This document shows positions 54,553 to 58,846 of a DNA stretch of 64,000 bases, one piece after another (the stretch's first letter is position 1; each line of letters opens with the position of its first letter). The translations under genes were made by a program, and so were the position numbers. The notes under the pieces were generated by a model. The model did not search any database. It worked only from the letters and a program-made list of their open reading frames with translations, and was not told the DNA's origin. Source of the DNA: Escherichia coli (GTDB lineage Bacteria > Pseudomonadota > Gammaproteobacteria > Enterobacterales > Enterobacteriaceae); NCBI RefSeq assembly GCF_030384885.1, contig NZ_CP128613.1; one strand, written 5' to 3'.

Positions 54553-55857
54553 ATGGATCTGTATATTCAGATTATCGTGGTGGCGTGCCTGACGGGTATG
54601 ACATCGCTTCTGGCGCATCGCTCGGCAGCCGTTTTTCATGACGGTATCCGCCCGATCCTGCCGCAACTGATTGAAGGCTATATGAACCGTCGTGAGGCGG
54701 GGAGTATCGCTTTTGGTCTGAGCATTGGTTTTGTGGCCTCGGTGGGGATCTCTTTTACCCTGAAAACCGGGTTGCTCAACGCATGGTTACTCTTTCTTCC
54801 TACCGATATCCTCGGTGTCCTGGCGATAAACAGCCTGATGGCGTTTGGCCTTGGTGCACTCTGGGGCGTACTGATCCTCACCTGTCTGCTGCCGGTAAAC
54901 CAGCTGCTGACCGCGCTACCGGTGGATGTATTAGGTAGTCTGGGGGAATTAAGCTCGCCAGTGGTTTCAGCTTTTGCACTGTTCCCGTTGGTGGCGATTT
55001 TCTACCAGTTTGGCTGGAAGCAAAGTCTGATCGCCGCCGTGGTAGTGTTGATGACCCGTGTGGTGGTAGTGCGCTATTTCCCGCATCTCAATCCGGAATC
55101 CATCGAAATCTTTATTGGCATGGTGATGCTGCTGGGGATCGCGATAACTCACGACCTGCGTCATCGTGATGAAAATGACATCGATGCCAGCGGTATGTCG
55201 GTGTTTGAAGAACGTACGTCGAGGATTATCAAAAATTTACCCTATATCGCCATCGTAGGGGCGCTGATTGCCGCCGTTGCCAGCATGAAGATTTTTGCTG
55301 GTAGTGAAGTGTCGATCTTCACCCTGGAGAAAGCATATTCCGCAGGTGTAACGCCGGAACAATCACAAACGCTGATCAACCAGGCGGCGCTGGCGGAATT
55401 TATGCGCGGGCTGGGTTTTGTGCCGTTGATTGCCACCACCGCGTTAGCAACAGGTGTGTATGCAGTTGCGGGCTTTACCTTTGTTTATGCGGTGGGCTAT
55501 CTCTCGCCGAATCCGATGGTTGCGGCGGTATTAGGCGCAGTGGTTATTTCGGCAGAAGTCCTGTTACTTCGTTCGATCGGCAAATGGCTGGGACGCTACC
55601 CATCGGTACGTAATGCGTCGGATAACATCCGTAACGCCATGAATATGCTGATGGAAGTGGCTCTGCTGGTCGGTTCGATTTTCGCAGCAATTAAGATGGC
55701 GGGCTATACCGGATTCTCTATCGCGGTTGCCATTTACTTCCTCAACGAATCTCTGGGCCGTCCGGTACAGAAAATGGCGGCACCGGTCGTGGCAGTAATG
55801 ATCACTGGCATCCTGCTGAATGTTCTTTACTGGCTTGGTCTGTTCGTTCCGGCTTAA
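54553..55857 (+). CDS. yhfT: Inner membrane protein YhfT (putative transporter)
   Basis: 434 aa polytopic membrane protein; MDLYIQIIVVACLTGMTSLLAHRSAAVFHDG... Confidence 0.82.
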   Translation: MDLYIQIIVVACLTGMTSLLAHRSAAVFHDGIRPILPQLIEGYMNRREAGSIAFGLSIGFVASVGISFTLKTGLLNAWLLFLPTDILGVLAINSLMAFGLGALWGVLILTCLLPVNQLLTALPVDVLGSLGELSSPVVSAFALFPLVAIFYQFGWKQSLIAAVVVLMTRVVVVRYFPHLNPESIEIFIGMVMLLGIAITHDLRHRDENDIDASGMSVFEERTSRIIKNLPYIAIVGALIAAVASMKIFAGSEVSIFTLEKAYSAGVTPEQSQTLINQAALAEFMRGLGFVPLIATTALATGVYAVAGFTFVYAVGYLSPNPMVAAVLGAVVISAEVLLLRSIGKWLGRYPSVRNASDNIRNAMNMLMEVALLVGSIFAAIKMAGYTGFSIAVAIYFLNESLGRPVQKMAAPVVAVMITGILLNVLYWLGLFVPA

Positions 55858-55868
55858 AGAAGGCACCT

Positions 55869-56954
55869 ATGAAGACGTTTCCTTTGCAAAGCCTGACGCT
55901 TATTGAAGCGCAGCAAAAGCAGTTTGCGTTGGTGGATACGATTTGCCGCCATTTTCCCGGCGCGGAGTTTCTTACCCGCGGGGATTTAGGCTTAACGCCG
56001 GGGCTGAATCAACCGCGCATTACTCAGCGTGTGGAGCAGGTGCTGGCTGATGCGTTTCATGCGCCAGCGGCGGCGCTGGTGCAGGGCGCGGGTACTGGAG
56101 CAATTCGCGTCGGGCTGGCAGCTTTGCTCAAATCGGGGCAGCGTCTTCTGGTGCATGACGCGCCTGTTTACCCGACGACTCAGGTCATTATTGAGCAGAT
56201 GGGGCTGACGCTTATTACAGCTGATTTCAACGACCTGTCGGCGCTTAAAGAGGCCATTGAAGAGCAACAACCTGATGCCGCGCTGGTGCAGCATACGCGC
56301 CAGCAGCCGCAGGACAGCTATGTACTGGCAGATGTGCTGGCAACGCTGCGCGCAGCAGGTGTTCCAGCCTTAACCGATGACAACTATGCGGTGATGAAGG
56401 TGGCGCGCATTGGCTGTGAATGCGGCGCGAATGTTTCGACATTCTCCTGTTTCAAGCTGTTTGGACCAGAGGGTGTTGGCGCGGTGGTAGGCGATGCCGA
56501 TGTTATCAACCGTATTCGCGCTACGCTTTACTCTGGCGGCAGCCAGATTCAGGGCTCACAGGCGCTGGAAGTCTTGCGTGGTTTGGTGTTTGCGCCAGTG
56601 ATGCACGCGGTGCAGGCGGGGGTATCTGAACGGTTGCTGGCTTTACTTAACGGTGGCGCAGTGGCGGAAGTGAAAAGCGCGGTGATTGCCAATGCGCAGT
56701 CGAAGGTGTTGATTGTGGAGTTTCATCAACCGATTGCCGCCAGAGTGCTTAAAGAGGCGCAAAAGCGCGGCGCGTTGCCTTACCCGGTTGGTGCAGAGTC
56801 GAAATATGAGATCCCGCCGCTTTTTTATCGCCTTTCCGGAACGTTTCGCCAGGCGAATCCGCAATTAGAACATTGTGCGATTCGTATTAACCCGAATCGC
56901 AGCGGTGATGAGACGGTATTGCGGATTTTGCGCGAGAGTATTGCCAGCGTTTAA
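55869..56954 (+). CDS. yhfS: Putative PLP-dependent enzyme YhfS
   Basis: 361 aa; MKTFPLQSLTLIEAQQKQFALVDTICRHFPGAEFLTRGDLGLTPG... Confidence 0.8.
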   Translation: MKTFPLQSLTLIEAQQKQFALVDTICRHFPGAEFLTRGDLGLTPGLNQPRITQRVEQVLADAFHAPAAALVQGAGTGAIRVGLAALLKSGQRLLVHDAPVYPTTQVIIEQMGLTLITADFNDLSALKEAIEEQQPDAALVQHTRQQPQDSYVLADVLATLRAAGVPALTDDNYAVMKVARIGCECGANVSTFSCFKLFGPEGVGAVVGDADVINRIRATLYSGGSQIQGSQALEVLRGLVFAPVMHAVQAGVSERLLALLNGGAVAEVKSAVIANAQSKVLIVEFHQPIAARVLKEAQKRGALPYPVGAESKYEIPPLFYRLSGTFRQANPQLEHCAIRINPNRSGDETVLRILRESIASV

Positions 56955-56992
56955 TTCTGGGAACGATGTTTTCGCAGAGTATGGAGAAAAAT

Positions 56993-57018
56993 ACGCCCTC
57001 GGAAAATTCAGAGGGCGT
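56993..57018 (-). terminator. Hairpin terminator between convergent yhfS and yhfL
   Basis: ACGCCCTC-ggaaaattca-GAGGGCGT, an 8 bp stem; T-run on the minus strand downstream of the yhfL stop. Confidence 0.55.
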
Positions 57019-57058
57019 TAGCTCATTAAATCGGTGTTAGCCGATTTCTGTCAGAGAC

Positions 57059-57226
57059 TTACTGTGCAGTAGGACCGCAACCGCCAATGATTTTAGAAAT
57101 AGAAATTGCTGGGTGCAGCAGGTAGTCGTAAGAGCAGTTCTTATCACGGTTTTCAATATGACCAGTACATGCAGTTAACGTAGCCAGTACCGCACCAACC
57201 AGTGCAACTTTAATAAATTTGTTCAT
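57059..57226 (-). CDS. yhfL: Small lipoprotein YhfL (55 aa)
   Basis: Translated by hand from the reverse strand: MNKFIKVALVGAVLATLTACTGHIENRDKNCSYDYLLHPAISISKIIGGCGPTAQ, with lipobox LTAC. Absent from the ORF track because it is under 60 aa. Confidence 0.85.
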   Translation of the reverse strand: MNKFIKVALVGAVLATLTACTGHIENRDKNCSYDYLLHPAISISKIIGGCGPTAQ

Positions 57227-57472
57227 TTACATTCCCTATGTATTATATATTAATTAATATTCATTTATTATATGAATATAAGCAGACTGCTCATTAAGAA
57301 CGATACAGGAATATTTAATTGGCGTCAGTGAGTGAATGACTTAATTTTGTAAGTCGCTGTAACGGTGAAAATAACCCATTAGCAAATGATATTTACTAAG
57401 AGGTTATGATTTATTTACTGAATATATAAAAAGAGTGATAAAGAGGGCCAGAATTATCTGGCCCGGGTAAAA

Positions 57473-58846
57473 TTAATGGTTAGAGAACCAGTTCAATTTA
57501 TCGCGCAGGCTAACGACCCGACCAATAATAATTAATGAGGGGCTGTTCATTTGCTGCGCCAGCTCGCCCAGTTGCGAGAGCGTACCGTCAATCACGCGTT
57601 GCGTTACCGCCGTACCGTTTTCGACAATCGCCACCGGCATTTCGCCAGGCATTCCGTGTTCAATCAGTTTTTGCTGAATGGTCGCGGCCTGATTCAGCCC
57701 CATATAGAACACTAGCGTCTGTTTTTCGGCTGCCAGGTTTTCCCAGTCCAGCTCGCCACCGGTTTTTAAGTGTCCGGTGATTAAGCGCACGCTCTGAGCA
57801 TAATCGCGATGCGTGAGGGGAATGCCCGAATAGGCAGAGCAACCAGACGCTGCGGTAATACCCGGAACTACTGAGAACGGAATACCCGCATTGCACAGTG
57901 TTTCAAGCTCTTCGCCACCACGGCCAAAAATAAACGGATCGCCGCCTTTCAGCCGCACCACGCGTTTACCTTTTTGCGCTTCCCGCAGCAGGATCTGGTT
58001 AATCTCTTCCTGCGGTACGCAGTGATACCCCGCGCGTTTACCGACGAAGACACGATCCGCATCGCGCCGTACCAGATTCATAATATCGTCTGAAACCAGA
58101 CGGTCGTAGACCACCACATCTGCCTGCTGAATTTGTTGCAGACCTTTTAGTGTCAGCAGACCGGCATCGCCCGGACCTGCGCCAACCAGCACCACTTCAC
58201 CGCGATGATCGAGCGGTTCATTGATTAACTGTTCGGTCGTTTCGGTAATGGCTTTCTGATCGTTGTTCGCCAGCGACTGCGCCAGGCGATCATTAACGAA
58301 CAGTTTTTCCCAGAAACGGCGACGTTCACCCATCGTGGCGAACTGTCGTTTGACCCGACCGCGTAACTGCCCCGCATATTTTGCTACCTGGCCGAGATGC
58401 AGCGGCAGCAGTGATTCAAGTTTTTCGCGCAACAGTCGCGCCAGAACCGGAGAGGTGCCGCCAGAGGAGACCGCTACCATGAGAGGGGAGCGGTCAATAA
58501 TCGACGGCATAATAAAGCTGGCGGCTTTCGGCGCATCGACCACGTTACAGAAGATACGACGAGATTCGGCGGCTTCGCTGACACGCTGGTTAAGCGCGTC
58601 ATCATCCGTCGCCGCAATTGCCAGCCAGCAGGTGTCGAGAAGGCTTTCATCAAATGGCCCTTCGACGAGGGTTAACATGCCTGCATCTGCCCATGCGGTG
58701 AACTGTGGAATAAACGCTAATGCATTCACCGTTAAGCGAGCACCTGCGTCTAACAGCAACCTTGCTTTGCGTTCCGCGACATCACCACCGCCGACAATCA
58801 AACAGTCGCGGTCGCGTAATTGGCAAAATATAGGCAAATGATCCAC
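57473..58846 (-). CDS. cysG: Siroheme synthase (multifunctional)
   Basis: 457 aa; [43 protein letters not shown]... Confidence 0.96.

Follow-up and report, generated by a model that had tools for sequence, protein, structure and literature searches.

A short open reading frame (ORF) on the reverse strand of an Escherichia coli genome raises the question of whether it is a genuine gene and, if so, what kind of protein it encodes. The window, meaning the whole stretch of DNA analysed, comprises 64,000 nucleotides of contig NZ_CP128613.1 (RefSeq assembly GCF_030384885.1), and the ORF occupies positions 57059 to 57226 of it. The first-pass annotation, made from the sequence alone, had described this ORF as a lipoprotein gene matching yhfL and hidden by a 60-aa ORF cut-off. 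The ORF is yhfL, a real gene that E. coli annotations already include, and as such an ordinary finding that was previously known. It is very likely to be a free-standing, monocistronic gene encoding a prolipoprotein of 55 residues that belongs to the YhfL/DUF4223 family, with the lipoprotein pathway as the likely mechanism.

Identity of the gene

The ORF is 168 nt long and, according to the ORF listing and its translation, extends from an ATG at 57226 to a TAA at 57061–57059. The 56 codons counted previously correspond to 55 codons plus the stop, and neither a frameshift nor a missing start codon, both of which were looked for, is present. The product, MNKFIKVALVGAVLATLTACTGHIENRDKNCSYDYLLHPAISISKIIGGCGPTAQ, was aligned with the annotated protein of E. 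coli K-12 MG1655 (b3369, NP_417828.1; 'DUF4223 domain-containing lipoprotein YhfL') and is 100% identical to it. Membership of Pfam DUF4223 (PF13978) is defined by a full-length HMM match above the gathering score. Residues 1 to 54 of the window protein align to profile positions 1 to 54 of 54, with 129.2 bits compared with a cut-off of 27 (E = 5e-38), and no family besides DUF4223 was detected in a Pfam scan at E ≤ 1. Orthology to b3369 is apparent in position as well as in sequence, as the gene adjoins nirBDC-cysG on the downstream side in the window and in K-12 alike. Protein identity, family match and the cysG neighbour thus uphold the identification as YhfL, and the coding sequence at 57059–57226 (−) corresponds to RefSeq yhfL, WP_001031834.1.

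The K-12 locus shares with the window the identical protein, the place directly downstream of cysG, the Shine-Dalgarno sequence, the promoter region and the terminator. The two loci differ at three of the 168 nt of the gene, all of these differences being synonymous, and in the neighbour that follows, which is yhfS in the window and the frlABCDR operon in K-12.

A 601-bp stretch around yhfL finds a match in 5,419 of 5,426 complete E. coli genomes, with yhfL annotated in more than 5,400, and is 100% identical to E. coli 2013C-4282 (NZ_CP027579.1). This record already names the ORF yhfL ('YhfL family protein', WP_001031834.1) between cysG and yhfS; therefore, the gene was not missed in the public annotation. 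In the ORF track supplied for the window it was indeed hidden by the 60-aa cut-off, as not a single ORF is listed at that default in the gap at 56955–57472. As a discovery, yhfL is of little weight, having been part of the K-12 annotation for decades. The case serves rather as a procedural control of modest value, in which real genes under strong conservation escape an ORF list filtered at 60 aa. A reader with the sequence alone recovered yhfL correctly, yet added one false detail, namely pairs of cysteines in CxxC-like motifs.

An Rfam scan of 56800–57600 revealed no known sRNA or leader, its two chance matches to eukaryotic families lying far below the gathering scores. A literature search under the name DUF4223 found nothing. 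The name yhfL is also used for an unrelated long-chain acyl-CoA ligase of Bacillus subtilis, which is the source of most literature matches for this name.

Genomic context

The gap at 56955–57472 measures 518 bp and lies between the end of yhfS (56954) and the end of cysG (57473). yhfS and yhfL are convergent, and the spacer from the yhfS stop to the yhfL stop (56955–57058) is only 104 bp long, because the 5.3-kb fructoselysine operon frlABCDR, which separates the two genes in K-12, is absent from the window. This contiguous yhfL–yhfS junction is found in 2,098 of the 5,426 complete E. coli genomes, and the remainder match the yhfL half only. The region 56900–57500 reaches an identity of at least 95% in only 45 of 5,421 matching E. 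coli records; most records show 90–95%, a low level for this species. Most of the divergence is located outside yhfL, in the spacer and on the yhfS-proximal side, which suggests a recombination-prone variable region.

The K-12 spacer between frlR and yhfS contains a REP-like palindrome that the window lacks. On the opposite strand, yhfT (434 aa) and yhfS (361 aa, a PLP-dependent aminotransferase-fold enzyme) occupy 54553–56954 (+), convergent to yhfL. Both genes belong to the poorly characterised yhfS-yhfX/php cluster and are annotated in the identical RefSeq record.

Outside E. coli, yhfL is found in a variety of surroundings. The Salmonella gene is located between bigA and trpS, and that of Cronobacter after frlR and before trpS. 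In Serratia, yhfL lies upstream of speFL-speF-potE, in Erwinia it is flanked by a ROK regulator and a LysR regulator, and in Edwardsiella it is situated near an integrase. The neighbours of the Xenorhabdus gene are a NUDIX gene on one side and, on the other, a small unannotated ORF followed by a gene for a Kdo hydroxylase. No partner gene is conserved beside yhfL in these six genera. yhfL is a stand-alone gene, and the sole regularity of its context is that it stays in the variable cysG-to-trpS region in close relatives.

Transcription and translation signals

The start codon is preceded by a Shine-Dalgarno-like AGGGA (57233–57237, −), read from the sequence 6 nt 5' of the ATG. At an equal upstream distance, the Serratia, Salmonella, Cronobacter and Erwinia homologues carry AGGGA, AAGGA or AGGA. 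No clear equivalent was seen at the Xenorhabdus locus, where an AAGG is located further upstream, or at the Edwardsiella locus. A start-stop ORF (ATG TAA) at 57227–57232 (−) lies in frame directly before the yhfL ATG (ATGTAAATG) and has the Shine-Dalgarno region in common with it. This mini-ORF is identical in K-12 and, given its lack of conservation in the six other genera examined, is probably incidental.

The spacer between cysG and yhfL (57227–57472) is an AT-rich stretch of 246 bp. It differs from K-12 by 6.3% (16 of 254 positions, a count that includes the final 8 bases of cysG) against 1.8% in yhfL, and the 75 nt downstream of yhfL contain nine differences. In K-12, the spacer is reported to be bound by H-NS, and genomic SELEX located in it an H-NS-associated sigma-70 'constitutive promoter', TTAACG-19-TATAAT (PMC3946193). 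A sigma-S SELEX peak has also been described in the K-12 spacer (PMC5493296). The counterpart in the window is a promoter-like TTAATG-19-TATAAT (57267–57297, −), a weak assignment, which deviates from the K-12 element by one base in the −35-like hexamer. A consensus promoter scan restricted to spacers of 16–18 nt called no sigma-70 site upstream of yhfL, because the 19-nt spacer of this element is outside the rules of the scan.

Just past the cysG stop, a scan detected a terminator-like hairpin, GGGCCAGATAATTCTGGCCC, with a T-rich tail (57445–57464, −), which is probably the terminator of cysG. yhfL would therefore constitute a separate transcription unit. At the other end of the gene, a stem formed by ACGCCCUC and GAGGGCGU is followed by AUUUUUCU (56985–57018, −). 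The RNA fold of 56985–57062 (−) has a minimum free energy (MFE) of −26.3 kcal/mol with z = −4.24, and none of 200 shuffles was as stable. The G+C-rich stem is kept in K-12, and the element is, judged by this predicted fold, a typical strong intrinsic terminator of yhfL. It was overlooked by the terminator scan because its loop region exceeds 8 nt, the scan allowing 3–8 nt. In the same MFE structure, a first, A/U-rich hairpin, AAAUCGG-N6-CCGAUUU (57028–57047, −), is located between the stop codon and the terminator and is kept in K-12 with one G-U change.

Among K-12 transcripts, the mRNA of yhfL showed the strongest repression upon induction of Nac, falling to 0.008-fold (approximately 125-fold), with a ChIP peak nearby (PMC5217608). 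The yhfL transcript is thus detectable, and the gene is taken to be transcribed under ordinary conditions.

Sequence conservation

Orthologues from Salmonella, Cronobacter, Serratia, Erwinia, Edwardsiella and Xenorhabdus were used for comparison between genera. For these orthologues, pS lies between 0.52 and 0.88, which is near saturation, compared with 0.16 to 0.21 for pN (between genera overall, 0.5–0.9 and 0.10–0.21), a pattern that indicates strong purifying selection on yhfL. When 21 homologues are aligned at the level of genera, the residues T16, L17, T18, C20, G22, N26, C31, Y33, D34, Y35, H38 and P39 are invariant, as are S42, S44, K45, I47, G48, G49, C50 and G51. In the same alignment, the signal-peptide h-region differs freely from genus to genus, while the lipobox is fixed. 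C20, C31 and C50 are still invariant across 32 diverse members, including more distant ones, and the window protein possesses every invariant column of both alignments.

A larger homologue set consists of 142 sequences bearing the YhfL core motif. A lipobox is recognisable in 136 of them and has the form LTAC in 112. Among the 136 lipobox-bearing homologues, the +2 residue is threonine in 134 and serine in two, aspartate does not occur, and +3 is glycine in 134; cysteines at mature positions 0/11/30 are present in 102. The window protein bears the family signature C-T-G-x8-C-x-YDYLLHP-x-ISISK-x-IGGCG, in which mature positions 1, 12 and 31 are cysteines. The family is small and narrow, comprising 269 clusters at 90% identity. 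Among 1.84 billion proteins, 46 cluster representatives (50% identity) match YhfL, and all organism-named matches are from Enterobacterales. That the mature peptide is so extremely conserved, when the signal peptide varies, suggests in our interpretation a conserved binding partner in the envelope.

Lipoprotein signals and predicted processing

The predicted signal peptide, MNKFIKVALVGAVLATLTA, comprises residues 1 to 19 (57170–57226, −). Its n-region contains K3 and K6, and residues 7 to 16 form a hydrophobic core that is devoid of D, E, R and K, with a Kyte-Doolittle 9-mer mean of up to 2.8 at residues 7 to 15. The lipobox L17-T18-A19-C20 (57167–57178, −) matches the classical pattern [LVI][ASTVI][GAS]C at residue 17, with Cys20 as the predicted lipidated +1 residue. 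The N-terminus also fits a PROSITE PS51257-style expression and the G+LPPv2 expression; the signal peptide and LTAC lipobox described in the first-pass annotation are thus in line with two published lipoprotein patterns. Substrates of signal peptidase II are recognised by a positively charged n-region, an uncharged hydrophobic h-region and a lipobox cysteine at residues 15 to 35, a range that includes Cys20. From these sequence signals, YhfL is most likely lipidated at Cys20.

Cleavage before Cys20 would leave a mature lipopeptide of 36 residues, CTGHIENRDKNCSYDYLLHPAISISKIIGGCGPTAQ (57062–57169, −), which carries conserved residues and, with Cys31 and Cys50, a probable disulfide pair. The two CxxC-like cysteine pairs that had been attributed to the protein do not exist. 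Only three cysteines are present (C20, C31 and C50), and they form neither a CxxC nor a Cx(1-4)C motif. As both remaining invariant cysteines lie in an oxidising compartment, a disulfide between them is expected, and Cys31 and Cys50 probably form the single disulfide of mature YhfL.

According to the Lol-avoidance rule of E. coli, lipoproteins without aspartate at +2 are released to the outer membrane. In YhfL, +2 is threonine and +3 is glycine, and the Asp +2 that marks inner-membrane retention is absent. Because of this Thr-Gly pair without aspartate, Lol sorting to the outer membrane is predicted, and YhfL is probably a small outer-membrane lipoprotein. In the proposed pathway, the precursor would be exported by Sec, Lgt would attach diacylglycerol to Cys20, LspA (signal peptidase II) would cut between Ala19 and Cys20, and Lnt would N-acylate the new N-terminus. 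LolCDE, LolA and LolB would carry the resulting lipopeptide of 36 residues to the outer membrane, where it would reside in the inner leaflet, and a Cys31–Cys50 disulfide made by DsbA would staple a tiny domain containing a beta-hairpin.

An AlphaFold2 model of YhfL, built from the 32-sequence alignment, consists of a signal-peptide helix followed by a hairpin of strands 21–25 and 32–36, with low confidence. Its mean pLDDT is 68, with values of 52–70 in the mature peptide. A profile search of PDB sequences returned no relative, the only match being PrsA (E = 0.67) through similarity of the signal peptide.

Alternative explanations

The length of the ORF alone is no evidence of a gene, because chance ORFs are common nearby. 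In the surrounding 3.3 kb, 49 ORFs reach 20 aa or more, among them antisense ORFs of 65–100 aa, and chance ORFs of like or greater length than yhfL are therefore readily found in its vicinity. These numbers would permit the ORF at 57059–57226 to be a chance, untranslated frame in an AT-rich spacer. However, it fits a curated family from end to end, its homologues extend over at least 20 genera in which synonymous change is saturated and the protein is conserved, and it is accompanied by Shine-Dalgarno, promoter and terminator signals. The conservation pattern can be regarded as having already refuted a chance ORF, the probability of which is practically nil. A small protein with redox activity or metal binding based on CxxC pairs is likewise an extremely improbable explanation, for which nothing speaks beyond the earlier description. 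The three cysteines are 11 and 19 residues apart, one of them is the predicted lipidation site, and the family spacing is 0/11/30. With no CxxC anywhere in its 55-aa sequence, YhfL does not fall into the CxxC redox or metal-binding class, and this explanation, too, is to be considered already refuted by the sequence.

Two further explanations concern the fate of the exported product. An older K-12 annotation lists YhfL as a 'conserved secreted peptide' (PMC5493296), and the alanine at −1 is compatible with signal peptidase I (SPase I), as would befit a soluble periplasmic peptide that is cleaved by this enzyme and carries no lipid. The leucine at −3, however, is typical of signal peptidase II sites and not of SPase I sites, and the current annotations of both K-12 and Salmonella designate a lipoprotein. 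Of 142 homologues, 136 retain the +1 cysteine and the L-[TAS]-[AG]-C box despite a freely varying signal peptide, which also argues against a soluble peptide; this explanation is quite improbable. A lipoprotein that stays in the inner membrane, or one displayed at the cell surface, instead of facing the periplasm in the outer membrane, is improbable as well. Enterobacteria do have lipoproteins that break the +2 rule or are exposed at the surface, but aspartate at +2 is found in none of the 136 homologues, all of which have threonine or serine at this position, nearly always followed by glycine. A lipidated, periplasm-facing protein of the outer membrane remains the preferred interpretation of YhfL.

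Possible role in the outer membrane

Lpp, OsmB, the entericidins EcnA/B and YnbE are, like YhfL, short prolipoproteins encoded by monocistronic genes with a stress or stationary-phase promoter. No sequence similarity to YhfL was detected for any of them (Pfam scan at E ≤ 1), and they lack the conserved two-cysteine mature domain that distinguishes YhfL. For another small lipoprotein, LptM (YifL), an assisting role in maturation of the LptD/E translocon was recently discovered. LptM resembles YhfL as a very short enterobacterial lipoprotein with a similar signal peptide and lipobox, whereas the mature sequences are unrelated. By analogy with the role of LptM for LptD, mature YhfL might serve a conserved outer-membrane machine, either as an accessory subunit that has gone unrecognised or as a helper in its oxidative folding, and not be a passive orphan. 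This proposal, which is unlikely and put forward tentatively, is founded on the near-invariance of the mature peptide from Escherichia to Xenorhabdus and Edwardsiella and on its two non-lipidated cysteines. Screens for interaction partners or for genetic interactions could reasonably include YhfL, given its unusually conserved mature peptide.

An assignment of YhfL to LptM itself was rejected. The LptM family NF047847 is the sole NCBIfam match, scoring 12.6 bits compared with a cut-off of 27.7, and it covers only residues 1 to 20, i.e. the signal peptide. Some YhfL homologues of 55–70 aa (P0068, P0108 and P0110) are labelled LptE/RlpB by JGI. This label was not adopted either: a Pfam scan of YhfL at E ≤ 1 yields DUF4223 only, and the homologues so named are 55–70 aa long and match PF13978 only. 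The LptE/RlpB labels probably reflect similarity of the signal peptide.

The Salmonella annotation of yhfL is that of a putative lipoprotein of the outer membrane. An antibody-agglutination screen enriched two CRISPRi spacers that target the gene, but a clean yhfL deletion was without phenotype in the single assay described (PMC12070745). Expression of yhfL was listed, without follow-up, among the predictors of antibiotic resistance in laboratory evolution (PMC4351646). In the pigeon-adapted DT2 lineage, Salmonella yhfL is listed as one of the genes whose coding capacity has changed (PMC3760250).
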